From sequence record MH383160: DNA of 64,000 nt. The stretch is one strand, 5' to 3'. A program made the position numbers and the translations under genes. The stretch comes from Escherichia phage UB. The notes below the pieces were generated by a model that was not told where the DNA came from, ran no database searches, and worked only from the letters and a program-made list of their open reading frames with translations. Position 1 is the stretch's first letter; each line of letters starts with the position of its first letter. Positions 11,494-33,661 of the stretch are shown here, in pieces.

Positions 11494-12044
11494 AATAGTT
11501 CCTTATACATATTATGTACTTTACAAATCTCATTATAGTATTTCATATCAATATCATTTGTATTAAAAACGGAAACAGACAATACCGCTAAATCATCAAT
11601 GAAGTAATTATTATCGGCGTACTCTTTTAACTTATTGAACATATAGATGCATTTTATACTTAATTCATCATGCAACACACTGTTCTGAAAAATATTCTCT
11701 TCAGTATTAGGAGATAAGTAATCTTCAATTATATACGATAAACTACTATCGCAATCTTTATAGATTGAAATTGATGGATGTAATGTGTCATACATTACAC
11801 TAAACAGATCACCGTCATATGTGGATATTAAACTATTATTGGAAACAGTAGGATGATAATATTTCAGTACTGAAAACTTTGAACAATCAGTGCAGTAAAA
11901 ATGATCCATCCCTCGACGACTTTCGTATGAGAATAGTTTACTTGTATATTCAATCCCTTTGGTGCGACGGATTGTTTCATGCATTTCTGCACATTGCATT
12001 AAAATTACCATACGTTCAAACGCAAGATCTAAATCATCGTACAT
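11484..12044 (-). CDS. FQ-motif family protein (hypothetical)
   Basis: ORF track 186 aa; motif EENIFQNSVLHD. Confidence 0.65.
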   Translation of the reverse strand: MYDDLDLAFERMVILMQCAEMHETIRRTKGIEYTSKLFSYESRRGMDHFYCTDCSKFSVLKYYHPTVSNNSLISTYDGDLFSVMYDTLHPSISIYKDCDSSLSYIIEDYLSPNTEENIFQNSVLHDELSIKCIYMFNKLKEYADNNYFIDDLAVLSVSVFNTNDIDMKYYNEICKVHNMYKELLCQ

Positions 12045-12225
12045 AACGGATATCCTTCTTCAACGAATTAATATATTCCAAAATAACTTGTTCCTGATAT
12101 TGAGTTCCCAAGTACATCAGGACTTTCAACTCTTTGAATTCAGTACTATATGAGTCTGTTTGCATCATTCTAGTAGAATATATATTGAATAGTTTAGCAA
12201 TGTCATTTTGGTCTATTATTTTCAT
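12034..12225 (-). CDS. LGT-QE family small protein (hypothetical)
   Basis: ORF track 63 aa; core YLGTQYQEQ. Confidence 0.55.
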   Translation of the reverse strand: MKIIDQNDIAKLFNIYSTRMMQTDSYSTEFKELKVLMYLGTQYQEQVILEYINSLKKDIRYVR

Positions 12226-12421
12226 ATATTCTCTTCTGGATTAGTTCCTGTAAGTGCTGAATATAACCCTTCATTGCAACATCCTGTTTGTTAGAGCCAA
12301 CGAAGAACAAGAGCTTAAAGTCATGGTAATCCATTTTTGGTTTAGTAGTGAACCATATGTCCCACACTGCACTCACAGTTCTCATGTATTCAATTCGATT
12401 AAATGTTTTTGAATACTTCAT
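12203..12421 (-). CDS. LGT-QE family small protein, divergent (hypothetical)
   Basis: ORF track 72 aa; core FVGSNKQDV. Confidence 0.5.
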   Translation of the reverse strand: MKYSKTFNRIEYMRTVSAVWDIWFTTKPKMDYHDFKLLFFVGSNKQDVAMKGYIQHLQELIQKRIYENNRPK

Positions 12422-12935
12422 CGATGTTCATCGCCAATAAGTTAATATACAAATTACTGTTAAATGCTATCTGCAATTCCATATAGAACTGAATGATAGC
12501 ATAGTCAGGGTCAGTACACGATAGTTGAAAGCACTGTTCTTCAAATGAATTGTAATTGTACTTAGGGATGTGAATTTCACGCTTCAAATCAGGTTGACCC
12601 CACTTCATCGCGTACACACCAATGTTATTGTTCTTTTTCCTTTTCTTAAATGTTAATTGTTGAATATTTCCTGCGTCATCCAGGAAAATAGTATTATTCG
12701 ACACAGGTGCACCAATAGAAAACAATGATGTATCAATTACGTGTGTCGCACGCACCTCACACTTCTGGAATGCCCCAGTACCCTGTAATACATAATGAAA
12801 ATTGTACTTCTCATTAACAACAGTACTAGGATCGATTAAACCAGTACTGCATTTTTTGAGTACTGGTACAATGGTGCGAATCTTTTTTGATAAATCTTGT
12901 AATGCATCAAAGTCATTGATGTTAACTTTCATCAC
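12399..12935 (-). CDS. FQ-motif family protein (hypothetical)
   Basis: ORF track 178 aa; motif EEQCFQLSCTD. Confidence 0.6.
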   Translation of the reverse strand: MMKVNINDFDALQDLSKKIRTIVPVLKKCSTGLIDPSTVVNEKYNFHYVLQGTGAFQKCEVRATHVIDTSLFSIGAPVSNNTIFLDDAGNIQQLTFKKRKKNNNIGVYAMKWGQPDLKREIHIPKYNYNSFEEQCFQLSCTDPDYAIIQFYMELQIAFNSNLYINLLAMNIDEVFKNI

Positions 12936-24171: not shown

Positions 24172-24524
24172 CCGTAATGAATAGGACTATTCTTTTCTCC
24201 TTTAGGAATAAAATATAAAGATGTACTGGGGTTATAACTGAATAAATCGTTGTTACCAAATGTAAAATGCGATAACTCAATTTTCCTTGTACCTGTACTT
24301 GGACGAAGAGCATTCTTAACACCGAAGACTGTACCTTGATATTTCTCGGAAAATTCAAACAATACATCTGTAATTAAATCACGAAACTCCGCATGTATGG
24401 TTTCAAAAAAATCTATATTACACGATGTTTTAATATCCTTGAACTCATTATAAAAAGCATGTCTTGTATTCAAAAGAAATATTACTTTTTTAAGATCCTG
24501 AACTATTTCTGGATTCATATTCAT
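24114..24524 (-). CDS. hypothetical protein
   Basis: ORF track 136 aa. Confidence 0.5.
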   Translation of the reverse strand: MNMNPEIVQDLKKVIFLLNTRHAFYNEFKDIKTSCNIDFFETIHAEFRDLITDVLFEFSEKYQGTVFGVKNALRPSTGTRKIELSHFTFGNNDLFSYNPSTSLYFIPKGEKNSPIHYGWIISYTINGTEYPIKWHD

Positions 24525-24756
24525 TTATCTCATTCTGTAACTTAAGCATCAAAATTTGCATATTAATTTTTTGTAAAAGGTGCTTGATAAATTTCTGTGC
24601 CATTTCTTCTTGTTCTTTTGTACCAAGATAAAATAACAGATTAAATTCTGATAATCGCAAAGAAAAATCTTCATCACCACCCTTTAAACAAAAATCCCTG
24701 TACTTTGTAGCGTACAAATATTGGTTTACCTTTTTATAATACCCTGTGTTTTGCAT
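24490..24756 (-). CDS. LGT-QE family small protein (hypothetical)
   Basis: ORF track 88 aa; core YLGTKEQEE. Confidence 0.55.
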   Translation of the reverse strand: MQNTGYYKKVNQYLYATKYRDFCLKGGDEDFSLRLSEFNLLFYLGTKEQEEMAQKFIKHLLQKINMQILMLKLQNEINEYESRNSSGS

Positions 24757-24944
24757 ACTATCTCCGTTCGCAACGAATTTATATAATAATGAACAAATTG
24801 TTCTTGTGAACGTGTTCCAAGAAAAATAAACATATCAAACTCTGTTGTTTTTAAATTCAATGCATCTTTTGTAAAATTCCTGTTGAATTCCCTGTACTTT
24901 TGGGTCTTCCATTCTTGATTAATTGTCTTGTATATCGATTTCAA
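24726..24944 (-). CDS. LGT-QE family small protein (hypothetical)
   Basis: ORF track 72 aa; core FLGTRSQEQ. Confidence 0.55.
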   Translation of the reverse strand: MKSIYKTINQEWKTQKYREFNRNFTKDALNLKTTEFDMFIFLGTRSQEQFVHYYINSLRTEIVCKTQGIIKR

Positions 24945-25239
24945 TGATTCTCCCTGACATACCTTGTATTAGCTTATCATACATATCGAGCATCACTTTT
25001 TGAATATTAATTAGTACTGGCATCGTGCAAATATCAATGTCGTATACTAAGCTGTACTGGAATAATTCATCTTCCTGCATTTGTACTAAATTAGGTAAAA
25101 GATAATTGTCTGCCTCTTCATCCTGGTACTTGAAATGCATAACACCATCCTTTTTGTACAAAAGAATGTCAATATCACCTAACTCTTCTGCATAACCAAA
25201 AATACATATACTCGATGTTTTTGCTATATTAAATTTCAT
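24919..25239 (-). CDS. FQ-motif family protein (hypothetical)
   Basis: ORF track 106 aa; motif EDELFQYSLVYD. Confidence 0.65.
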   Translation of the reverse strand: MKFNIAKTSSICIFGYAEELGDIDILLYKKDGVMHFKYQDEEADNYLLPNLVQMQEDELFQYSLVYDIDICTMPVLINIQKVMLDMYDKLIQGMSGRIIEIDIQDN

Positions 25240-26045
25240 GATTTATATTGTTCCTTAAAAACACCACAATGATAATTTTTATTGTATTGTGTAATACTAT
25301 AATCACACGGCATTGTCCCGCACGAAGCTCTGTGTTTTAAACGTTCCAATACCTTATCGTAATCTTTACTGAAAATGCCATTTTCATTGGGCGTAGCAAT
25401 CATTAATGCTTGCTCATATAAATCTTTTGTTCTTGTTGAACCATGCGAATGTTTGTTAAAATAAAATACATATTCAACTTCCCAATTACTTCTTAAATAG
25501 GATATTCCGTAATTGATAATCATATAATAATGTAAATCCTTGTAATAATTGAATGTCTTATCTGTATTAATCAAAATATATGAAGAACTATCATTGTCCT
25601 TAATAACAAATAAACGACCAATCTTATTTTCTTTATCTTTAACTAATTGTCTAATTTCATCACCTTCTTCAAATTTACGATGCACTTCAATTACAGATTT
25701 AGCAATCCCAGTCTGTACTAAAGATTCATATGTTGCGTACATAAAATCACTTACATGACCTAAACCAACATCTTCTTTTCTTGGTGTCTCTGTTGTATTG
25801 ACAAACATATTCAATAACTTTTGAATTGAAAAATCAGTACTGCAATCTTTATTAATTTTAATTTTTTCTCGAATCTCTTCCTTTAATGCATTAATATATT
25901 GCTCTTGTGCTGCTTCCTGATAATTTGTACCAAGATATAAACTCAAGGCAACTGAACCTTTGTAAGATGCTGATTTCTTTAAATCACCAGAACTAAATTT
26001 TTTCATAATCAAATTGGTTGCTTCAGATTCTGTTAAAAATTTCAT
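25236..26045 (-). CDS. fusion protein: N-terminal LGT-QE module plus ~200 aa C-terminal domain with Cys/His cluster (hypothetical)
   Basis: ORF track 269 aa; N-terminus LYLGTNYQEAAQEQYINALKEEI; C-terminus contains CGTMPCDYS...YHCG. Confidence 0.6.
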   Translation of the reverse strand: MKFLTESEATNLIMKKFSSGDLKKSASYKGSVALSLYLGTNYQEAAQEQYINALKEEIREKIKINKDCSTDFSIQKLLNMFVNTTETPRKEDVGLGHVSDFMYATYESLVQTGIAKSVIEVHRKFEEGDEIRQLVKDKENKIGRLFVIKDNDSSSYILINTDKTFNYYKDLHYYMIINYGISYLRSNWEVEYVFYFNKHSHGSTRTKDLYEQALMIATPNENGIFSKDYDKVLERLKHRASCGTMPCDYSITQYNKNYHCGVFKEQYKS

Positions 26046-26781: not shown

Positions 26782-27177
26782 CTAGTACTGCACTGTTCTA
26801 ATGAAAGTACCTTTACTCATGGATTTAAGCTTATGAACCTCTTCCTGCATACCCTTAATTAACCCTAAAGGTATAGGTAAATCATGTACTAAGCTGTACT
26901 GAAAGTATTCTTCTTCAGATAAAGTACTAACATCTGGGACTCCAATTTTAGTTAGATAATCTTGATGTGTTGACCAATAAATTATATCTTCAGTACTATT
27001 GTACTCCCCATATACTGAACAATATTGATGAATATCTTTCCTGTACCCTTGAGCAATAAAGAACTTATCTACTGCATTACCAGCATTAATAGAATTCACT
27101 TCTATTGTCACAGTACTTGAGCTTGTATAACTCTTAATATTATCAGTACTCAATAATGTGTTCTTCATAATCACCAT
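26782..27177 (-). CDS. FQ-motif family protein (hypothetical)
   Basis: ORF track 131 aa; motif EEEYFQYSLVHD. Confidence 0.65.
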   Translation of the reverse strand: MVIMKNTLLSTDNIKSYTSSSTVTIEVNSINAGNAVDKFFIAQGYRKDIHQYCSVYGEYNSTEDIIYWSTHQDYLTKIGVPDVSTLSEEEYFQYSLVHDLPIPLGLIKGMQEEVHKLKSMSKGTFIRTVQY

Positions 27178-27487
27178 TAGGCTCCTGTTTAGATTCTTTC
27201 ATTAGTACTATCATCTTATGTACTAATGGCATAGGAAACTCTAAATCCCATACTAATGATTCCTGAAAGTATTCTTCTTCAGATAAAGTACTTAAATCTT
27301 TAATATCAACGTGCTTGTATATTTTATTTTCGTAATTAACAAATGATATATATAAATCACTAACATAAGAATCATAGGTAATTGTGAATGGCTTACCCTT
27401 GTAATCCATTACATCTCTACATAGACTACTTTTGATATATGTATGTTCAAATGATTTATATACCTTGAGTTGTATATTAGTTTTCAT
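27143..27487 (-). CDS. FQ-motif family protein (hypothetical)
   Basis: ORF track 114 aa; motif EEEYFQESLVWD. Confidence 0.65.
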   Translation of the reverse strand: MKTNIQLKVYKSFEHTYIKSSLCRDVMDYKGKPFTITYDSYVSDLYISFVNYENKIYKHVDIKDLSTLSEEEYFQESLVWDLEFPMPLVHKMIVLMKESKQEPNGDYEEHIIEY

Positions 27488-27752
27488 ATTTCTCTTTATT
27501 AGCTTGTTTTGTTTTATGGTGAATTAAATCTATTAATGTAATCAAGTACAACGTCAAATAGTACTCTTGTTGATCTGTACCTAATGATACAAAGAACTTG
27601 TGCTCATAGATTAAAACCTGTTTCTCTTCAAATGGACATTTAATCCTCTGTATAGGCTTAAGTAAATGATAGTACTTATTAAATCTATGATACATTTCTA
27701 GTTCTGTCAGTACTTTCATATTAAACACGTACTCCATTAGCAGTAGCATCAC
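27477..27752 (-). CDS. LGT-QE family small protein (hypothetical)
   Basis: ORF track 91 aa; core SLGTDQQEYY. Confidence 0.55.
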   Translation of the reverse strand: MMLLLMEYVFNMKVLTELEMYHRFNKYYHLLKPIQRIKCPFEEKQVLIYEHKFFVSLGTDQQEYYLTLYLITLIDLIHHKTKQANKEKYEN

Positions 27753-27942
27753 GTAAAGCTGTCAAATACTTCTGTACTGCTTGCTCTTGTTTATTTGTAC
27801 CTAAAAGTATATACATCCATAATTCACTGTAATGTACATCTTCTGTATAAGGGTTGTTGTAACTTTTTGATAATATAGCATCAAATTCAGATGCATGAAC
27901 CCTTGTGAACTTAAGAATATCTTGTTGTGTTATGATTCTCAT
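27721..27942 (-). CDS. LGT-QE family small protein (hypothetical)
   Basis: ORF track 73 aa; core LLGTNKQEQ. Confidence 0.55.
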   Translation of the reverse strand: MRIITQQDILKFTRVHASEFDAILSKSYNNPYTEDVHYSELWMYILLGTNKQEQAVQKYLTALRDATANGVRV

Positions 27943-28154
27943 ATCTTTTCCTGTACAATCTGTATAAGAATACCTATGTGTGAATTAACAGTTCTCTCTT
28001 GATGCTGTGTTCCTAAGAGTGTCAGTACTATCATATCTGAACGCAAAAGATTTTTTTCAAGTTCACTTATATCAGTTCTTGAATCAAGTGCCATATATTT
28101 GTGATTATTCTTCCTGAATAGTGCCAAGTACTCTTGATTTGATATTTCCTTCAT
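27939..28154 (-). CDS. LGT-QE family small protein (hypothetical)
   Basis: ORF track 71 aa; core LLGTQHQER. Confidence 0.55.
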   Translation of the reverse strand: MKEISNQEYLALFRKNNHKYMALDSRTDISELEKNLLRSDMIVLTLLGTQHQERTVNSHIGILIQIVQEKI

Positions 28155-28372
28155 AGTTTATTCCTGATGCCATTTAAAAGTGCTCTAATATGCTCATTGA
28201 CAAATCGCTCTTGGGAATCTGTTCCTAGAGTGAGTAGCAATCTTAAATCTGAACTTTTGATGTGATATTCTAAATCATTATTTGATTCTTGCATCAGTTT
28301 CTTAAAGGATGAGAAGTTTGCAGCCATTAGTTCAATGTATTCTGCTGTTCCTAGTGGTTTGTGTGTTGACAT
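28151..28372 (-). CDS. LGT-QE family small protein (hypothetical)
   Basis: ORF track 73 aa; core TLGTDSQER. Confidence 0.55.
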   Translation of the reverse strand: MSTHKPLGTAEYIELMAANFSSFKKLMQESNNDLEYHIKSSDLRLLLTLGTDSQERFVNEHIRALLNGIRNKL

Positions 28373-28584
28373 TTGAGTTGTATTACCCTTTTGAGTGTAT
28401 TAATGTAATTATACACATTGGCTTCTTGATAGTTTGTTCCTAGAGTAGCTTGAACATAGATTTCATTTAACTTAATAATTTTATCAGTATCTGGTAGTTT
28501 TGATGTGTTAATGGCAAATAACTTCAAAAACAGTCCATTTAAGATTGTTAGGTATTCTTCGTCGGTAATGATTCGCATTTGCAT
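28351..28584 (-). CDS. LGT-QE family small protein (hypothetical)
   Basis: ORF track 77 aa; core IYVQATLGTNYQEA; near-identical to next gene. Confidence 0.55.
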   Translation of the reverse strand: MQMRIITDEEYLTILNGLFLKLFAINTSKLPDTDKIIKLNEIYVQATLGTNYQEANVYNYINTLKRVIQLKCQHTNH

Positions 28585-28796
28585 TGGATAAACCTTTTTA
28601 GTTCTTTGATGTAATCATTAATATTGCATTCTTGGTAGTTAGTTCCCAGTGTAGCTTGAACATAGATTTCACTTACTAGAATACTTATTTCATCATCTGG
28701 TAATTTCATGCTTTTTGTTATAAACAACTTTAGAATTAAACTACTTAATAGTTGGTTGTATTCTGTGGGTGAAATGATTTTCATTTTCATTTGCAT
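28548..28796 (-). CDS. LGT-QE family small protein (hypothetical)
   Basis: ORF track 82 aa; core IYVQATLGTNYQEC. Confidence 0.55.
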   Translation of the reverse strand: MQMKMKIISPTEYNQLLSSLILKLFITKSMKLPDDEISILVSEIYVQATLGTNYQECNINDYIKELKRFIQCKCESLPTKNT

Positions 28797-29002
28797 TTTC
28801 TCAGTACTGATTCTTTAAGTTCATTGATGTAGTCCTCAACGAATTGTTCTTGTAGGTTTGTTCCGAGATATAACAGTACTCTTAAATCTGCTCTAAGTAC
28901 TTCTTTGTCATCTTCATCTATATCAGACAGTGTTATGTTTAAGAATTTACTTGAATTCTCTACAAGTAATATTACTTCTTCACCTTCTCTTAAAATTTTC
29001 AT
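28787..29002 (-). CDS. LGT-QE family small protein (hypothetical)
   Basis: ORF track 71 aa; core YLGTNLQEQ. Confidence 0.55.
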   Translation of the reverse strand: MKILREGEEVILLVENSSKFLNITLSDIDEDDKEVLRADLRVLLYLGTNLQEQFVEDYINELKESVLRKCK

Positions 29003-29208
29003 AATCTTAGTGCTTTCCTCGACAGTAGGTACAGGTAACGTTCAGTGCATTGTTCTTGATAGTTTGTTCCTAATAAATGAACTAAATGTTGTTCAGCTAT
29101 AGAAAGCTGCTTGTCTTCATAACAAGCGTATCGTTGTTTCCTATGGTATTCTTTATTGATAACATCAAGGATGATAACACCGTATTCGTCATCTGTCAAG
29201 TGTTTCAT
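28999..29208 (-). CDS. LGT-QE family small protein (hypothetical)
   Basis: ORF track 69 aa; core LLGTNYQEQ. Confidence 0.55.
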   Translation of the reverse strand: MKHLTDDEYGVIILDVINKEYHRKQRYACYEDKQLSIAEQHLVHLLGTNYQEQCTERYLYLLSRKALRL

Positions 29209-29446
29209 GCTTTTTTCTTTTTCTTATATGTTTAGTTAAAAGGTATATTAGTTTTCTGATGTATTCTTCCTGATAGTTTGTTCCTAAGAGTGCAAGAAGT
29301 TTTGCTTCAACTAAAGCTAATTGACGTTCTTCGAATGTGTGTTCCAGTATGTACTTGGGGTTTGATTTTTTAGCGTAAGCACTATTAGTCTTCATTACAA
29401 TCTTATGATATTCATTAGCTGTTAGGATTTTTAAATACTTGATCAT
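29189..29446 (-). CDS. LGT-QE family small protein (hypothetical)
   Basis: ORF track 85 aa; core LLGTNYQEE. Confidence 0.55.
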   Translation of the reverse strand: MIKYLKILTANEYHKIVMKTNSAYAKKSNPKYILEHTFEERQLALVEAKLLALLGTNYQEEYIRKLIYLLTKHIRKRKKHETLDR

Positions 29447-29666
29447 GTATCTTTTCCTTTATAGAGAATTTAAGATATCGAAGCATACTTTCAATGTAAT
29501 ACTCTTGTCTGTCAGTGCCAAGAAAGTACATGAGTTGAATGTATAAAACTTCTGCACTCCTTTCCGCTGGAGACTTGTTTGTGTCGTTTGGAAGTTGATT
29601 TGTATGTTTTCTTGATTTAATTAGTCGTTCTTTTAACTCATCGTCTGTTAAGTATTTCATTTTCAT
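29415..29666 (-). CDS. LGT-QE family small protein (hypothetical)
   Basis: ORF track 83 aa; core PAERSAEVL...FLGTDRQEY. Confidence 0.55.
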   Translation of the reverse strand: MKMKYLTDDELKERLIKSRKHTNQLPNDTNKSPAERSAEVLYIQLMYFLGTDRQEYYIESMLRYLKFSIKEKIHDQVFKNPNS

Positions 29667-29892
29667 TTACTTTTTCCTTAATAGTAATTTTAAGATATCT
29701 AATCATACGTGCAACATATTCCTCTTGTCTATCAGTTCCCAGAAGATATGGTAGTGATTGGAATAATACTTCTGCACTCCTTTCTGCTGGGGTTTGGTTT
29801 AGGTCAATTGGACGTTTATTGGTATATCTCTTGGCACGAACTAATCTCTCGACGTATTCATTATAGGTTAAGTATATCATTTCATTTTGCAT
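29638..29892 (-). CDS. LGT-QE family small protein (hypothetical)
   Basis: ORF track 84 aa; core LLGTDRQEE. Confidence 0.55.
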   Translation of the reverse strand: MQNEMIYLTYNEYVERLVRAKRYTNKRPIDLNQTPAERSAEVLFQSLPYLLGTDRQEEYVARMIRYLKITIKEKVNENEILNRR

Positions 29893-30118
29893 TTACTTTT
29901 TCCTTAATAGTAATTTTGAGATATTTAATTATACGTTCAATGTGATACTCTTGCCTATCAGTTCCAAGAAGGTATGGTAATCTTTGGAATAAAACTTCCG
30001 CACTCCTTTCTGCTGGGGTTTGATTTGTGTTGTGAGGAAGTTTATTTGTAAGTCTTTTGGATTTATCTAGTCTTTCTGTTAACTCATCATGTGTTAAGTA
30101 TATCATTTCATTTTGCAT
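29882..30118 (-). CDS. LGT-QE family small protein (hypothetical)
   Basis: ORF track 78 aa; core LLGTDRQEY. Confidence 0.55.
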   Translation of the reverse strand: MQNEMIYLTHDELTERLDKSKRLTNKLPHNTNQTPAERSAEVLFQRLPYLLGTDRQEYHIERIIKYLKITIKEKVNAK

Positions 30119-30345
30119 TTAATGTTCCTTACGTAAATTGTCTGGATTAAACAATCAATCCAAGTTTGAATATATTGGTTTTGATACTGTGTGCCTAAGA
30201 GACTCTGCATTTTAAACTCTGCTTCAAGTTCATATCTCTTTTCTATAGAAAAGCTCAAATGACCATATTCTTTATCGTATCTTCTCAGTGCTTCCCCAAT
30301 TCTATTAAATCTTTCTGCTAATCTGATGTTATTCACAATATTCAT
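30103..30345 (-). CDS. LGT-QE family small protein (hypothetical)
   Basis: ORF track 80 aa; core LLGTQYQNQ. Confidence 0.55.
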   Translation of the reverse strand: MNIVNNIRLAERFNRIGEALRRYDKEYGHLSFSIEKRYELEAEFKMQSLLGTQYQNQYIQTWIDCLIQTIYVRNIKCKMK

Positions 30346-30632
30346 CGATCAGTATACCTCAGTGGTTGGGTCATTTGATAAAAGTACAGCTTACCTTTGA
30401 TTTCCAGTAGTAACTCCGCGATTAAGCGATTTACTTCTGTATCTTGATAGTTTGTTCCTAAGAATACACCCATCTTTAACTCACGCATCATAATCATTTT
30501 CTTACTGTGTTGGATTTCTGGGTTGTGATAAATTGTATTACGTTTGTGCGTAATTTTTGTCATACGCTCGGTATATTCATCTTTACTTAAATTGATCATT
30601 TGCATGTTAATTACCCTTACATTTATTTTCAA
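30342..30632 (-). CDS. LGT-QE family small protein (hypothetical)
   Basis: ORF track 96 aa; core FLGTNYQDT. Confidence 0.55.
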   Translation of the reverse strand: MKINVRVINMQMINLSKDEYTERMTKITHKRNTIYHNPEIQHSKKMIMMRELKMGVFLGTNYQDTEVNRLIAELLLEIKGKLYFYQMTQPLRYTDR

Positions 30633-30837
30633 TACTATTCATGAGTTCTATAAGATAGTTTTCTACCTTACCTTCCTGATAGTTAGTCCCTAGGAAGTTG
30701 CACAACACGGCTTCTATGATTTTGATTTTCCTGATATCAGGCTTCAATCTTTTGTTATTGAATATTTGAATCCTTATATCTCTGGATGCATTTAAACGTT
30801 TTTGATATTCATGGTAAGTTAAATGAATCATTTTCAT
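30607..30837 (-). CDS. LGT-QE family small protein (hypothetical)
   Basis: ORF track 76 aa; core FLGTNYQEG. Confidence 0.55.
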   Translation of the reverse strand: MKMIHLTYHEYQKRLNASRDIRIQIFNNKRLKPDIRKIKIIEAVLCNFLGTNYQEGKVENYLIELMNSIENKCKGN

Positions 30838-31052
30838 TTACGTTTAACCTCTCGCTGGAGGGCATCAATTAACATCAGTACAGCATTCTCTTGATAGTTT
30901 GTTCCTAAGACTGAAAGCATCTTTATCTCATTTACTAAAATCAACTTCTTTGAGGGTTCAATAATGTGACTATCATAAACGGCCTTACGTGCTGGATAAG
31001 TTTTCGCCAGTATAACATAAAATTCGTCTTTACTTAAATTAATCATTTGCAT
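30834..31052 (-). CDS. LGT-QE family small protein (hypothetical)
   Basis: ORF track 72 aa; core VLGTNYQEN. Confidence 0.55.
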   Translation of the reverse strand: MQMINLSKDEFYVILAKTYPARKAVYDSHIIEPSKKLILVNEIKMLSVLGTNYQENAVLMLIDALQREVKRK

Positions 31053-31261
31053 TTACTTTTAACCTCTTTCTGTAGAGCGTCAATCCATAGATCTACATAC
31101 ATTTGTTGATAGTTTGTGCCTAAGAGTGCACCTACATAGAGTTCAGTTACTAGTGCGTGCTTAAGGTTAGCTTGGATGCTCTTATCGCTTGATATCATTC
31201 TCCTTCTGCTTCCACATGTTTTCAGGAGTCTGATGTATTCAAAGCCTTGTAAATTTCTCAT
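31043..31261 (-). CDS. LGT-QE family small protein (hypothetical)
   Basis: ORF track 72 aa; core LLGTNYQQM. Confidence 0.55.
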   Translation of the reverse strand: MRNLQGFEYIRLLKTCGSRRRMISSDKSIQANLKHALVTELYVGALLGTNYQQMYVDLWIDALQKEVKSKCK

Positions 31262-31473
31262 ATTTTGGATACCACCTTGTTACGTAAGGAACTTAATAAT
31301 ACGTCAGTGTAGATGTTTTGATAGTTTGTCCCTACGAATACACCCAACTTCATTTCAGCTATTATAACACATTTGTCCTCTTGTGCAATAGATTTGTTTA
31401 ACACAATACTATACACTTTTGATTTGATAGTTTGTAACCTCCAATGATACTGATACTCATTAAGGATTATCAT
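31258..31473 (-). CDS. LGT-QE family small protein (hypothetical)
   Basis: ORF track 71 aa; core FVGTNYQNI. Confidence 0.55.
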   Translation of the reverse strand: MIILNEYQYHWRLQTIKSKVYSIVLNKSIAQEDKCVIIAEMKLGVFVGTNYQNIYTDVLLSSLRNKVVSKI

Positions 31474-31708
31474 TCTCTTTCCTCCAGATTTCGGTTCTCA
31501 TGTGTTGGCAGTGTGCTTCGATGAACATATCTATTGATTTGGCAATTGCGTTTTTATCAGTGCCTGTCATCAGTACAAGCATCTCGGCCTCACAGTGAAG
31601 TAAACGCATGATATCATAGGGTAATATTTCAGATACAGTGTCATAGTGTTTCTGTGCCAGTGTCTGCAATAGTTTACAATACATTTTGTGATTTAGTCTT
31701 TGTCGCAT
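31460..31708 (-). CDS. LGT-QE family small protein, divergent (hypothetical)
   Basis: ORF track 82 aa; core LMTGTDKNAI. Confidence 0.5.
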   Translation of the reverse strand: MRQRLNHKMYCKLLQTLAQKHYDTVSEILPYDIMRLLHCEAEMLVLMTGTDKNAIAKSIDMFIEAHCQHMRTEIWRKENDNP

Positions 31709-31965
31709 TGTTTATTCCATTCTTTTTTGGCCTTGATGGTTTTATATTGGATTTGGTTTCTTAATGCTGATAAGTATCGTTGAATGAACAGATCTTGATA
31801 GTTTGTTCCAATGAATTTCATAAGATAAAGTTCACCGTTGATAACATCCACTTCAGGTGCACCATATAAGGCATTGTTTTTTCTAAGGGCATGGATTAAA
31901 GAGAATAGGGCAGTTTGATACTCAACTCCTGATAAAGTCTTCATGTTTTGTGAGCAAATAATCAT
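31693..31965 (-). CDS. LGT-QE family small protein (hypothetical)
   Basis: ORF track 90 aa; core FIGTNYQDL. Confidence 0.55.
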   Translation of the reverse strand: MIICSQNMKTLSGVEYQTALFSLIHALRKNNALYGAPEVDVINGELYLMKFIGTNYQDLFIQRYLSALRNQIQYKTIKAKKEWNKQCDKD

Positions 31966-32179
31966 CTAGTTTATCCTGTATAACATTCGTTAATTGTTCG
32001 ATATATTCTGTGCAAAACTTATCTTGATATTGAGTCCCCATAAAGTACAGCAACCATAGCTCATTAACTTTAGCTCGCATTTGGTTCCATGTAAGGCTGG
32101 GGTCACCGTAGACTATCCTTGTGATGGGGGTTAGTTTACGAATTATAGTTTCAAATTCATCATCAGTTAAGTGTTTCAT
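31922..32179 (-). CDS. LGT-QE family small protein (hypothetical)
   Basis: ORF track 85 aa; core FMGTQYQDK. Confidence 0.55.
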   Translation of the reverse strand: MKHLTDDEFETIIRKLTPITRIVYGDPSLTWNQMRAKVNELWLLYFMGTQYQDKFCTEYIEQLTNVIQDKLDDYLLTKHEDFIRS

Positions 32180-32394
32180 TTACATTTGTCCCTTATTAGA
32201 TCAGTGAGGGCAACTATGTGTGCAACAACATACTCTTCCTGAAAGTTCGTCCCCAGTACAGCCATCATGCGTATATCGGTGGTGTTTATCCTGTGTTCCC
32301 TTACACATAAACCTTCTGTGTGAGGAAGTGTAAAATATTTGTTTATTGCAGCAACGATAATTTTATTCTTCTCGGAGTTACTTAAATGTTTCAT
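32176..32394 (-). CDS. LGT-QE family small protein (hypothetical)
   Basis: ORF track 72 aa; core VLGTNFQEE. Confidence 0.55.
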   Translation of the reverse strand: MKHLSNSEKNKIIVAAINKYFTLPHTEGLCVREHRINTTDIRMMAVLGTNFQEEYVVAHIVALTDLIRDKCK

Positions 32395-32603
32395 AGTTTA
32401 CTCCTGATATAATTCTGAAGTGCAATTAAGTATTCCCCTACATAATACACCTGAAAGTCTGTATCAAGGAATGCACCCATAAGTAAATCTTTTTCTAATA
32501 CCCTTGATAAGTTAAGGTCTGCATTTGAAAGGTATATAAGTAAGATTTCACCCTGTGCGGAATTGAAACGTTTCTTATATTCTTCTGATGTTAAAAAAAT
32601 CAT
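32391..32603 (-). CDS. LGT-QE family small protein (hypothetical)
   Basis: ORF track 70 aa; core FLDTDFQVY. Confidence 0.5.
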   Translation of the reverse strand: MIFLTSEEYKKRFNSAQGEILLIYLSNADLNLSRVLEKDLLMGAFLDTDFQVYYVGEYLIALQNYIRSKL

Positions 32604-32815
32604 AATTTGCTCCTGATATATTTCTCAAGAGATGACAAATACTTTTCCTCATAATACTTCTGATAGTCTGTTCCTAAGAATGCACCCAATAGTATATCAT
32701 TTTCCAATACCTCGGCTAAGTTTAAATCAGAAGTCTCTTCGTATATTATGAGGATTTCAAGTTGTCTGGCAGCGATGCGTTCAGTATATTGATATGAGTT
32801 TTCTATAATAATCAT
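32600..32815 (-). CDS. LGT-QE family small protein (hypothetical)
   Basis: ORF track 71 aa; core FLGTDYQKY. Confidence 0.55.
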   Translation of the reverse strand: MIIIENSYQYTERIAARQLEILIIYEETSDLNLAEVLENDILLGAFLGTDYQKYYEEKYLSSLEKYIRSKL

Positions 32816-33021
32816 AGTTTACTCTTAATATCTTCTATTAAAAATCGAATCCATTCTTCAACATAATCTTCCTGATGGTTTGTGTTCAGTACAGCCAACA
32901 TGCGGATCTCTGCTCTTGCAACTTCAATTTCAGTTTTAGGAAGGTCTTTGCTGATATCCACCATTAAGTCCATGTATTTCAAGATAAGACCGTATGATTG
33001 GGTTCGTGTTATAGTTTTCAT
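32812..33021 (-). CDS. LGT-QE family small protein (hypothetical)
   Basis: ORF track 69 aa; core VLNTNHQED. Confidence 0.5.
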   Translation of the reverse strand: MKTITRTQSYGLILKYMDLMVDISKDLPKTEIEVARAEIRMLAVLNTNHQEDYVEEWIRFLIEDIKSKL

Positions 33022-33218
33022 TGTTTCCTCGTGGACAATATTTTATTTTTCAATGTATCCATATATTGAATCACCCATCTTTCCTGATAGTTAGTTCCCA
33101 AAGTAATCAAAAGGTATAACTCCATTCGTTCTACGTGTGTGTCTGTATTATAAATCTTTGTGAAGTTTTTACGTAACAGTGATTGATATTCTTCTTTATT
33201 TAAAATACGCATTTTCAT
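33018..33218 (-). CDS. LGT-QE family small protein (hypothetical)
   Basis: ORF track 66 aa; core TLGTNYQER. Confidence 0.55.
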   Translation of the reverse strand: MKMRILNKEEYQSLLRKNFTKIYNTDTHVERMELYLLITLGTNYQERWVIQYMDTLKNKILSTRKQ

Positions 33219-33412
33219 AGTTTACTCGTTATATCTTCAATTAAATACCAAATCCAATCGTTGACATACCTTTCCTGAAAGTTAGTTCCAATGAATAGTG
33301 CCATAATTAATTCACGCTTATAGGCAATACCACGGTCATGGGACTTATACATTATCATAGCCATGTTATTGATAAGTCTTTCGTGGTGCTGTTCTTTAGT
33401 TAAAATACGCAT
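33215..33412 (-). CDS. LGT-QE family small protein (hypothetical)
   Basis: ORF track 65 aa; core FIGTNFQER; first gene of the array. Confidence 0.55.
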   Translation of the reverse strand: MRILTKEQHHERLINNMAMIMYKSHDRGIAYKRELIMALFIGTNFQERYVNDWIWYLIEDITSKL

Positions 33413-33661
33413 AGGGACTCCATTAAAAATAATATCAATCCTATAATATACGATTCGTATAAAAAATCAATAACATTTTATTCGTAATACCCCTTTATCG
33501 AAGTCGCTAAGGTTACCCGCCCTTTAGCCCCCTACGCATTTTGCCATAGTCCAATCCCTTTTATTTCAAAAAAGTCAAGGGATTACCTATGCATTTTTTT
33601 AACGCATAATTTTAAAAACGCCTTGACTTTTTTCTGAATCAGTACTAGATCCCTTTACGCA
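33413..33661 (-). promoter_or_regulatory. non-coding control region upstream of the LGT-QE array
   Basis: 249-bp gap with 13-bp inverted repeat AAAAAAGTCAAGG / CCTTGACTTTTTT (33567..33633), four CTACGCATT-like repeats and a candidate TTGATT-N16-TATTAT promoter. Confidence 0.3.

Follow-up and report, generated by a model that had tools for sequence, protein, structure and literature searches.

An 18-nucleotide string recurring in a tandem gene array of Escherichia phage UB is probably the imprint of a conserved protein motif

The DNA analyzed here is a stretch of 64,000 nucleotides (nt) from Escherichia phage UB (sequence record MH383160), referred to below as the window (positions 1–64000). 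On its minus strand, positions 27477–33412 are occupied by a head-to-tail array of 27 small open reading frames (ORFs) of 65–96 amino acids (aa). All belong to one family, the LGTNYQ family, as established from the ORF list, a family hidden Markov model (HMM) and the protein family PHROG 4148. Inside these genes an 18-mer, TGATAGTTTGTTCCTAAG, recurs on the plus strand; its reverse complement, C TTA GGA ACA AAC TAT CA, encodes Leu-Gly-Thr-Asn-Tyr-Gln. The most probable reading is that the 18-mer mirrors, in nucleotides, a protein motif of the 27-gene tandem array that is predicted to be structurally essential, and that it is not a separate DNA or RNA element.

A minus-strand array of LGTNYQ-family genes beside the terminal repeat

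All 26 junctions between array genes are gene overlaps, of 4–44 nt. An HMM built from the array genes recovered 27/27 array members (E values 5e-27 to 8.5e-20), and the five array genes tested against PHROG 4148, an entry of unknown function, matched over profile positions 1–74 (E values 3e-21 to 1.2e-11); the array genes had no match in Pfam. The family is annotated as hypothetical proteins in 35 Asteriusvirus records, and the array DNA is 88–94% identical to that of Asteriusvirus jumbo coliphages (ELP-22, phAPEC6, PBECO4, Sharanji, 121Q and others). Searches with tblastn returned the family only in 33 records, all of them Escherichia and Salmonella phages, a full HMMER scan of 1.84 billion representative proteins gave 85 family matches, and the best family matches in a collection of 5.8 billion sequences sat on contigs of ~350 kilobases (kb). 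From these searches the LGTNYQ family appears confined to Asteriusvirus-like jumbo coliphages, and no distant relatives that would supply independent codon samples were found. Scanning the window and related loci with the family HMM gave 23–32 members per window or locus. For the array protein, neither structure nor sequence comparison turned up a relative with a known function, and a literature search found no paper describing the array.

In phage vB_Ec-M-J (OQ718158.1, repeat_region annotation), a 21.5-kb direct terminal repeat ends ~100 base pairs from the array's first gene. By homology with vB_Ec-M-J (annotation plus blastn offset), the inner repeat boundary falls at window position ~33510, within the intergenic region upstream of the array (33413–33661). 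The tandem paralogues thus adjoin the terminal repeat, the arrangement of a viral terminal multigene family.

The product of the gene at 30834–31052 was modeled with AlphaFold2 using the paralogue alignment as input, giving a three-helix bundle with helices at residues 8–27, 33–47 and 54–71 and a predicted local distance difference test score (pLDDT) of 96.9. In the model, LGTNYQE (residues 49–55) covers the turn that links helix 2 to helix 3 and extends into the start, or N-cap, of helix 3, Thr51 is bridged to residue 4 in an N-terminal strand, and Thr and Glu would form a capping box. In the paralogue alignment, Thr, Gln and one downstream Leu are invariant and Gly is kept in at least 90% of copies.

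Recurrence of the 18-mer and variation at its silent positions

The plus strand of the window contains 13 matches to TGATAGTTTGTTCCTAAG at ≤3 mismatches, all within 28000–33102 and all inside the array, against a shuffled expectation of 0.11 (maximum 2). The recurrence reported in the initial annotation is therefore real, but the description of the string as almost unchanged in many copies was overstated, holding for about one quarter of the genes, and the positions listed were approximate, off by up to 16 nt. Over the 27 homologous sites the mismatches number 0, 0, 0, 1, 1, 1, 2, 2, 2, 3, 3, 3, 3, 4, 5 and 5, with the rest at 6–10; 6/27 sites lie within 1 mismatch and 14/27 have 4–10.

The array was fetched from eight related phages and one more distant lineage and codon-aligned to the family HMM, and orthologues were defined as reciprocal best hits. 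The synonymous rate (dS) and the ratio of nonsynonymous to synonymous rates (dN/dS) were calculated by the Nei-Gojobori method between the window and each of the eight relatives. Core and non-core dS were, respectively, 0.278 and 0.192 (relative L001), 0.471 and 0.321 (L002), 0.245 and 0.319 (L003), 0.105 and 0.074 (L004), 0.371 and 0.399 (L005), 0.349 and 0.328 (L006), 0.341 and 0.228 (L008), and 0.147 and 0.138 (L009). Core dS thus equals or exceeds non-core dS in 6/8 genome comparisons, and the reduced synonymous rate expected of a cis-acting DNA repeat was not seen among the eight, while dN/dS is 0.09–0.30 in the core and 0.32–0.40 outside it. Within orthologue clusters, synonymous polymorphism is 39% in the core and 29% outside it overall; by degeneracy class, the core and non-core values are 25% and 25.8% for C/T two-fold sites, 20.7% and 16.7% for A/G two-fold sites, 54.9% and 34.9% for four-fold sites, and 50% and 36% for six-fold sites. 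The initial annotation had proposed that the core is conserved at the DNA level, to be judged by comparing synonymous with nonsynonymous variation inside and outside the 18-mer; by that comparison the proposal fails, as silent sites vary at least as freely as elsewhere. Because its silent positions change between related phages as freely as others do, the 18-mer is read as an ordinary coding motif and not as a DNA or RNA signal, with the exception of a preference for three codons.

Among paralogues, conservation of the core follows a three-base rhythm. At invariant residues, information content is 1.6–2.0 bit at codon positions 1 and 2 versus 0.3–0.9 bit at position 3. Mean pairwise nucleotide identity in the core is 0.79 at positions 1 and 2 and 0.445 at position 3, and the corresponding non-core values are 0.43 and 0.335; given the same residue, codon identity is 50% in the core versus 45% outside it. 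Core conservation is thus three-periodic, not independent of codon position as expected of a cis-acting DNA repeat.

The individual sites, each in a minus-strand gene, are as follows. Exact copies lie at 29271–29288 (gene 29189–29446, core LGTNYQE), 30445–30462 (30342–30632, LGTNYQD, the orthologue of ELP22_0085) and 30892–30909 (the chimeric gene 30834–31052, LGTNYQE). One mismatch is found at 29057–29074 (28999–29208, LGTNYQE), 31107–31124 (31043–31261, LGTNYQQ) and 32661–32678 (32600–32815, LGTDYQK), and two at 28427–28444 (28351–28584, LGTNYQE), 31319–31336 (31258–31473, VGTNYQN) and 31796–31813 (31693–31965, IGTNYQD). Sites with three mismatches are 28000–28017 (27939–28154, LGTQHQE), 30182–30199 (30103–30345, LGTQYQN), 30677–30694 (30607–30837, LGTNYQE, all three synonymous: CTA GGG ACT) and 33085–33102 (33018–33218, LGTNYQE). 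The array's first gene (33215–33412, IGTNFQE, site 33276–33293) has four. Five are present at 27788–27805 (27721–27942, LGTNKQE, with GGT and AAT) and at 28633–28650 in 28548–28796, a recent duplicate of 28351–28584 that retains LGTNYQE, so that all five are synonymous (CTG GGA ACT AAC TAC). Six separate the 18-mer from 27568–27585 (27477–27752, LGTDQQE, TTA GGT ACA GAT), 28212–28229 (28151–28372, LGTDSQE), 28851–28868 (28787–29002, LGTNLQE), 32240–32257 (32176–32394, LGTNFQE) and 32452–32469 (32391–32603, LDTDFQV), and seven separate it from 32025–32042 (31922–32179, MGTQYQD) and 32873–32890 (32812–33021, LNTNHQE, a mosaic with 33215–33412). Three recently duplicated paralogues within 29415–30118 (29415–29666, 29638–29892 and 29882–30118, all LGTDRQE; sites 29506–29523, 29726–29743 and 29952–29969) have nine mismatches each, and the most divergent paralogue (31460–31708, TGTDKNA plus a 6-residue insertion, site 31551–31568) has ten.

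In the explanation that we consider most probable, an array of a lineage-specific three-helix-bundle protein, adjoining the terminal repeat of an Asteriusvirus-type jumbo coliphage, would have arisen through rounds of unequal recombination, with birth and death of genes and some of them left chimeric. Because L-G-T-N-Y-Q-E is predicted to make the tight helix 2–helix 3 turn and to cap the N terminus of helix 3, with Thr bridging to the N-terminal strand, purifying selection would freeze the 12 nonsynonymous bases among the 18 in most copies. A smaller codon-specific effect would lie on top, keeping Asn as AAC and Tyr as TAT and avoiding GGT for Gly. As the sole long near-identical stretch common to the paralogues, the core may occasionally serve as a crossover point for ectopic recombination.

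Codon choice within the core and alternative explanations

The initial annotation extended the conservation of the core to synonymous positions. For most residues this does not hold: six Leu, four Gly, three Thr and two Gln codons occur at the core, and Leu, Thr and Gln codon usage matches background (not significant). Three residues are skewed. Core Asn is AAC in 15/16 cases (background 25–37%, p about 1e-5 to 1e-6), core Gly is GGA in 15/25 and GGT in 2/25 (background GGT 58–68%, p about 1e-5), and core Tyr is TAT in 13/14 (background 61%, p 0.02). When each of the 67 orthologue clusters, drawn from all lineages, cast a single vote, AAC accounts for 28/38 core versus 62/185 non-core votes (p 7e-6), TAT for 32/36 versus 131/244 (p 4e-5) and GGT for 17/63 versus 35/60 (p 5e-4). 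Phylogenetic inertia is an unlikely cause, as control Tyr columns elsewhere in the array genes are fully mixed (7/9, 9/3 and 5/7) and the core Leu, Gln and Glu columns are at background. Avoidance of GTAC as the reason for GGA was rejected, since GTAC is over-represented (623 versus 388 expected) and Gly before Thr elsewhere is GGT in 35/59 cases. A bias of codon pair or context was rejected as well: Asn codons that precede Tyr outside the array are AAT in 42/56 cases, and Tyr codons that precede Gln there are TAT in 22/38. The skew beyond amino-acid constraint (AAC, TAT and not GGT) is real but unexplained, and points to weak selection on codon choice at the invariant Asn, Tyr and Gly.

Further unevenness in synonymous usage was seen in the array genes. 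Leu at alignment column 14 is TTA in 14/20 genes (p 0.0014), and the LGT core is therefore not the sole place with synonymous skew; the column-14 skew may have to do with the start of translation or with the upstream gene that overlaps there. The 5′ ends of array genes, spanning the first ~8 codons (M-K-x-L-T-x-x-E-Y), are conserved in nucleotide sequence between some paralogues, with identities of 0.8–0.94 over the first 24–58 nt (e.g., 30605–30632 and 31025–31052). At the Gln-Glu junction of the core, a hand count over 27 genes gave CAG followed by GAG in 0/6 cases and CAA followed by GAG in 8/12; the absence of CAG-GAG looks like avoidance of the Shine-Dalgarno-like AGGAG inside genes.

Several observations weigh against reading the 18-mer as a protein imprint. 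When synonymous codons were redrawn for each gene's own core peptide from background usage (20000 runs), 0.01, 0.15, 1.0 and 3.3 sites were expected at 0, ≤1, ≤2 and ≤3 mismatches versus 3, 6, 9 and 13 observed, and 0/20000 simulations reached the observed counts; protein constraint combined with genomic codon usage thus under-predicts the recurrence. A force beyond amino-acid selection acts on the third positions of the Gly, Asn and Tyr codons (Gly3, Asn3 and Tyr3). The skew persists in a diverged lineage whose paralogues are only ~47% identical (TAT 8/10, where background favors TAC; AAC 6/9; GGA 11/21), which favors an active force over inertia. Synonymous polymorphism at the Asn and Tyr codons is somewhat low, at ~5/35 clusters versus 26%, a difference that is not significant. 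In addition, the description of the motif as structurally essential derives from a predicted model together with conservation.

Among the alternatives, frequent gene conversion, as proposed in the initial annotation, would homogenize the core among paralogues. The genes are tandem, a near-identical stretch of 14–23 nt is common to the copies, and some genes are mosaic, with a 31-nt near-identical 5′ tract between 30342–30632 and 30834–31052. However, 25–26/27 paralogues have a reciprocal-best-hit 1:1 orthologue of 83–95% aa identity in each related phage, whereas paralogues are ~20–30% identical to one another (18–39% for 21 paralogues against one reference paralogue). Paralogues within a genome are thus not more alike than orthologues, and since they keep 1:1 orthologues there is no concerted evolution. 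Paralogue-specific synonymous core variants (e.g., CTA GGG ACG AAC TAT CAG) have been inherited across nine genomes, the recent duplicates 28351–28584 and 28548–28796 have the same LGTNYQE but cores that differ at three synonymous positions, and core and flank identity between paralogues are uncorrelated (Mantel rho 0.05, p 0.26). No unbroken runs of identity spanning synonymous sites were found: Leu3, Gly3, Thr3 and Gln3 are heterogeneous, and a conversion tract is excluded because third positions 3 nt apart differ, Thr3 being mixed and Asn3 and Tyr3 nearly fixed. Frequent gene conversion is accordingly an extremely improbable cause of the recurrence. Shared recent ancestry of the genes with a consensus core was likewise rejected, given the lack of core-flank correlation and a synonymous codon identity in the flanks that does not differ (39.5% versus 41.9%). 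A different use of recombination would make the core a joint under drive, a preferred site of ectopic crossover at which consensus copies recombine and multiply more and gene halves are shuffled as modules. The genes at 32812–33021 and 33215–33412 are 77% identical in nucleotide sequence from core to stop codon and 38% identical upstream, their 5′ halves being unrelated, and the maximum chi-square breakpoint falls inside the core; ELP22_0084 and its neighbor ELP22_0085 are alike from start codon to core and unrelated after it. The chimera 30834–31052, whose 5′ 58 nt are 94% identical to 30342–30632 and whose 3′ part is 68–82% identical to 31043–31261, has no close orthologue in 121Q or UE-S1, and the Sharanji copy of its protein is 100% identical. 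Similarities of N- and C-terminal halves between paralogues are nearly uncoupled (Spearman 0.19). Array copy number also differs between phages, as in the 29415–30118 triplet and in the one extra gene that ELP-22 and SHEFM2K carry beside the orthologue of 30342–30632; such variation in copy number and content between strains, with chimeric genes, is that of a birth-and-death multigene family. Yet the presence or absence of ELP22_0084 is the one recent indel that was resolved, and its junction lies in repeated gene-boundary sequence, not in the core; two breakpoint scans (maximum chi-square and two-segment likelihood) were dominated by a conserved N-terminal motif, rate heterogeneity and edge effects, and the core did not stand out in them; the mixture at Thr3 (ACA 17, ACT 9, ACG 1), halfway along the 18-mer, interrupts the required identity tract; paralogues whose cores are identical do not have more similar flanks; and core variants are stable across the nine genomes. 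A recombination joint with drive is therefore unlikely, and a maintained joint, in which GGA..AAC TAT is held against codon preference for half-gene shuffling among ~30 paralogues, seems decidedly doubtful. If true, the latter would be a built-in modular diversification of a host-interaction protein in a jumbo phage, its traces being the mosaics 32812/33215, 30834 and ELP22_0084 together with a codon skew that persists in a lineage with saturated synonymous divergence. The three to four mosaic gene pairs are hints of earlier crossovers in or close to the core, which is probably passive microhomology for occasional crossovers, a role that would be a by-product and not a function.

The second role suggested in the initial annotation, a DNA- or RNA-level one such as a recombination or recognition site, would require a dedicated element in each gene, for example an internal promoter, a site for binding or recognition, or an RNA that is folded or processed there. 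The excess of nucleotide recurrence over the expectation from protein and codon usage and the persistence of the Gly3, Asn3 and Tyr3 skew in the diverged lineage speak for it, but the conservation is strictly three-periodic and core dS between orthologues is not reduced. RNAalifold applied to the 27 codon-aligned genes returned no base pairs and no consensus structure, the core pairing probability was 0.528 versus 0.517 overall, an Rfam scan of the window gave no matches, promoter-like sites were at the shuffle expectation without enrichment, and sub-motifs such as AACTATCA and GGAACAAAC were not enriched outside the array. In addition, 14/27 genes differ from the motif at four or more positions, and copies containing Asp do not keep the C. 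Terminators and overlapping ORFs were considered and nothing was found; by inspection, an alternative-frame ORF is impossible because ACT at Thr makes an off-frame TAA. A dedicated element is thus very unlikely. The residual synonymous skew, and only that, might instead reflect selection linked to transfer RNA (tRNA), which would complement the protein-motif explanation without replacing it. Akashi-type selection acts on translational accuracy at conserved residues, and the tRNAs of phage T4 match phage-preferred codons. In the array, GGA-ACA-AAC is cognate to tRNA-Gly(UCC), tRNA-Thr(UGU) and tRNA-Asn(GUU), all encoded by close relatives (PMC11895373, PMC12805682), and would be decoded faster or more accurately where misincorporation destroys the fold. 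The tRNAs annotated in Sharanji are Thr(tgt), Asn(gtt), Met, two Ser, Arg(tct) and Gly(tcc) (PMC11895373), and ARAGORN found Asn(gtt) and two Thr(tgt) in fEgEco12. The strongest skews, at Gly and Asn, run counter to the genomic preference and toward the cognate codon, Thr tends in this direction too (ACA 63% versus 45%), and Leu and Gln, for which there is no phage tRNA, show no skew. The preference for C is specific to Asn, Asp at the same column being GAC in 3/9 cases with no excess, so that an effect at the level of the codon fits better than one at the level of the nucleotide. As in Akashi-type and T4 systems, the skew affects invariant residues only, the Asn codon AAC is fully cognate, and GGA, ACA and AAC match the anticodons. 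Unlike in those systems, Tyr, without a phage tRNA, prefers the wobble codon TAT (32/36 clusters), so that preference for the cognate codon at constrained sites is present for Gly, Thr and Asn and absent for Tyr. Conserved Gly and Asn sites of neighboring genes are without effect: the Akashi test was restricted to 18 neighboring genes, its genome-wide version being confounded by highly conserved terminal-repeat genes, and it gave GGA at 20% of conserved versus 22.5% of variable sites and AAC at 26% versus 24%, with low power (35–80 sites per class). Moreover, non-core Gly and Asn codons of the array genes follow genomic preference, fEgEco12 lacks tRNA-Gly yet belongs to the same group, and a tRNA scan found no tRNA gene in the window, the tRNA set of the window phage being taken from relatives. 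Selection linked to tRNA is thus rather unlikely, and the resemblance to Akashi-type systems may be regarded as a lead, not a demonstrated mechanism.

Within the genus the tRNA complement differs: the Gly(tcc) and Arg(tct) genes of Sharanji are both absent from fEgEco12, which has two Thr(tgt). HNH endonuclease genes are annotated beside the tRNA cluster in several relatives.

Surrounding sequence and comparison with other systems

The family HMM identified five weaker family members in the window but outside the array, all on the minus strand. Two lie at 12037–12240 and 12206–12427 (spanning 12037–12427; HMM E values 3e-13 and 2e-6, and PHROG 4148 E value 1.6e-16 for the former), and two divergent members with cores LGTKEQE and LGTRSQE lie at 24490–24756 and 24726–24944 (spanning 24490–24944). 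The fifth, at 25236–26045, encodes a 269-aa protein in which residues 1–63 constitute the family domain (LGTNYQE; PHROG 4148 E value 1.2e-10), followed by ~200 aa of unknown function. Homologues of this fusion protein comprise only one cluster of 99% identity, a single-sequence structure model had a pLDDT of 33, and the protein gave no clue to family function.

Directly downstream of the array, 26782–27487 holds two paralogous genes (131 and 114 aa) of a second family, PHROG 13866, with the common motif STLSEEEYFQ.SLV.DL. On the terminal-repeat side, genes at 33.6–39.6 kb are 85–100% identical in aa sequence to a divergent Asteriusvirus-like lineage (L011 and L013–L015); in the same lineage, reciprocal-best-hit paralogues of the array average ~47% identity and genes below 27 kb are 24–62% identical. 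The array thus lies where a highly conserved terminal repeat gives way to a hypervariable region, and GC content steps from ~0.30–0.34 to 0.36–0.41 at this border. One contig of the divergent lineage carries, inside the gene block of the terminal-repeat side, an extra 84-aa gene with a ParE_like (PF24732) match (L015:1059–1313) that is absent from the sister contigs L013 and L014.

Three further features concern the window as a whole. The palindrome AGTACT, weakly extended to CAGTACTG, is its most over-represented hexamer, with 262 copies versus 21.6 expected from base composition (12-fold). Copies occur in all three reading frames (69/36/65), the 170 genic copies compare with 55.6 ± 5.5 after synonymous shuffling, and the density is highest in intergenic DNA (91 copies in 10.3 kb). 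No AGTACT is present at 18–24 kb or 30–32 kb, and the array has few copies; enrichment extends to all related loci (L003, L010, L011, L013, L016 and L018), at 2.4–5.1 per kb. A literature search found no paper that connects this hexamer with jumbo phages. The palindrome could be a site of binding, modification or regulation, and may be of greater interest than the 18-mer. GCGC has 0 copies versus 49 expected in the window and 0 versus ~120 expected in ~190 kb of related loci (18 loci), the window also lacks CTGCAG, TCCGGA, GGATCC, CCATGG, GGTACC and CGGCCG, and its GATC count is 0.57 of that expected; the missing GCGC and other sites look like strong restriction-site avoidance. GC skew turns from negative to positive at ~54 kb, below which nearly all genes are on the minus strand (143/152 called). 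As ~54 kb is roughly one terminal-repeat length (~21 kb) from the boundary at ~33510, it may be a physical genome end or a point of divergent transcription.

Large DNA viruses have terminal multigene families, such as multigene families MGF110 and MGF360 of African swine fever virus, the terminal families of poxviruses and "genomic accordions". The array resembles these in its tandem paralogues beside a terminal repeat, in copy number that varies between strains, in gene birth, loss and chimera formation by what would be unequal recombination, and in a conserved core motif within otherwise fast-diverging small proteins (non-core dN/dS ~0.35 in the array). It differs in coming from a bacteriophage, in its much smaller proteins (~70 aa), in that the host target is not known, and in showing no evidence of rapid, selection-driven change in copy number. 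Large virulent phages also carry small early host-takeover genes in or beside terminal repeats, as in the SPO1 terminal redundancy, the T5 pre-early region and the Kayvirus tre genes. Here the likeness lies in the genome end that is injected first and in many small, tightly packed genes on one strand; the difference is that those modules hold mostly unrelated genes, whereas the array is one amplified family.

Within the same phage group and as the same general process, tandem duplication has been noted as a route of jumbo-phage genome expansion for phAPEC6 and 121Q (PMC7247149), and paralogues have been noted in phage CBB (PMC5259590). The array and its motif are not described in either, and the remark on phAPEC6 stands in a section on the tail and is assumed to concern other related genes. 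The array genes tested match PHROG 4148 over their full length, and members outside the array match it as well. That entry comes without function, structure or genomic context; the present analysis supplies the 27-copy array, the three-helix model and the codon data.

When a short string of nucleotides recurs across a tandem gene family, a protein motif nearly always lies behind it, and caution is warranted in reading more into it. The decisive check for such strings is dS inside versus outside the motif among orthologues, and by this check the LGT core is cleared. The codon skew and its coincidence with the phage tRNA set pose a cheap experimental question. The array itself adds a compact case, not discussed before, of a multigene family that adjoins a jumbo coliphage's terminal repeat, for which a confident predicted fold is now available, and would be a reasonable candidate for host-takeover or counter-defense screens.

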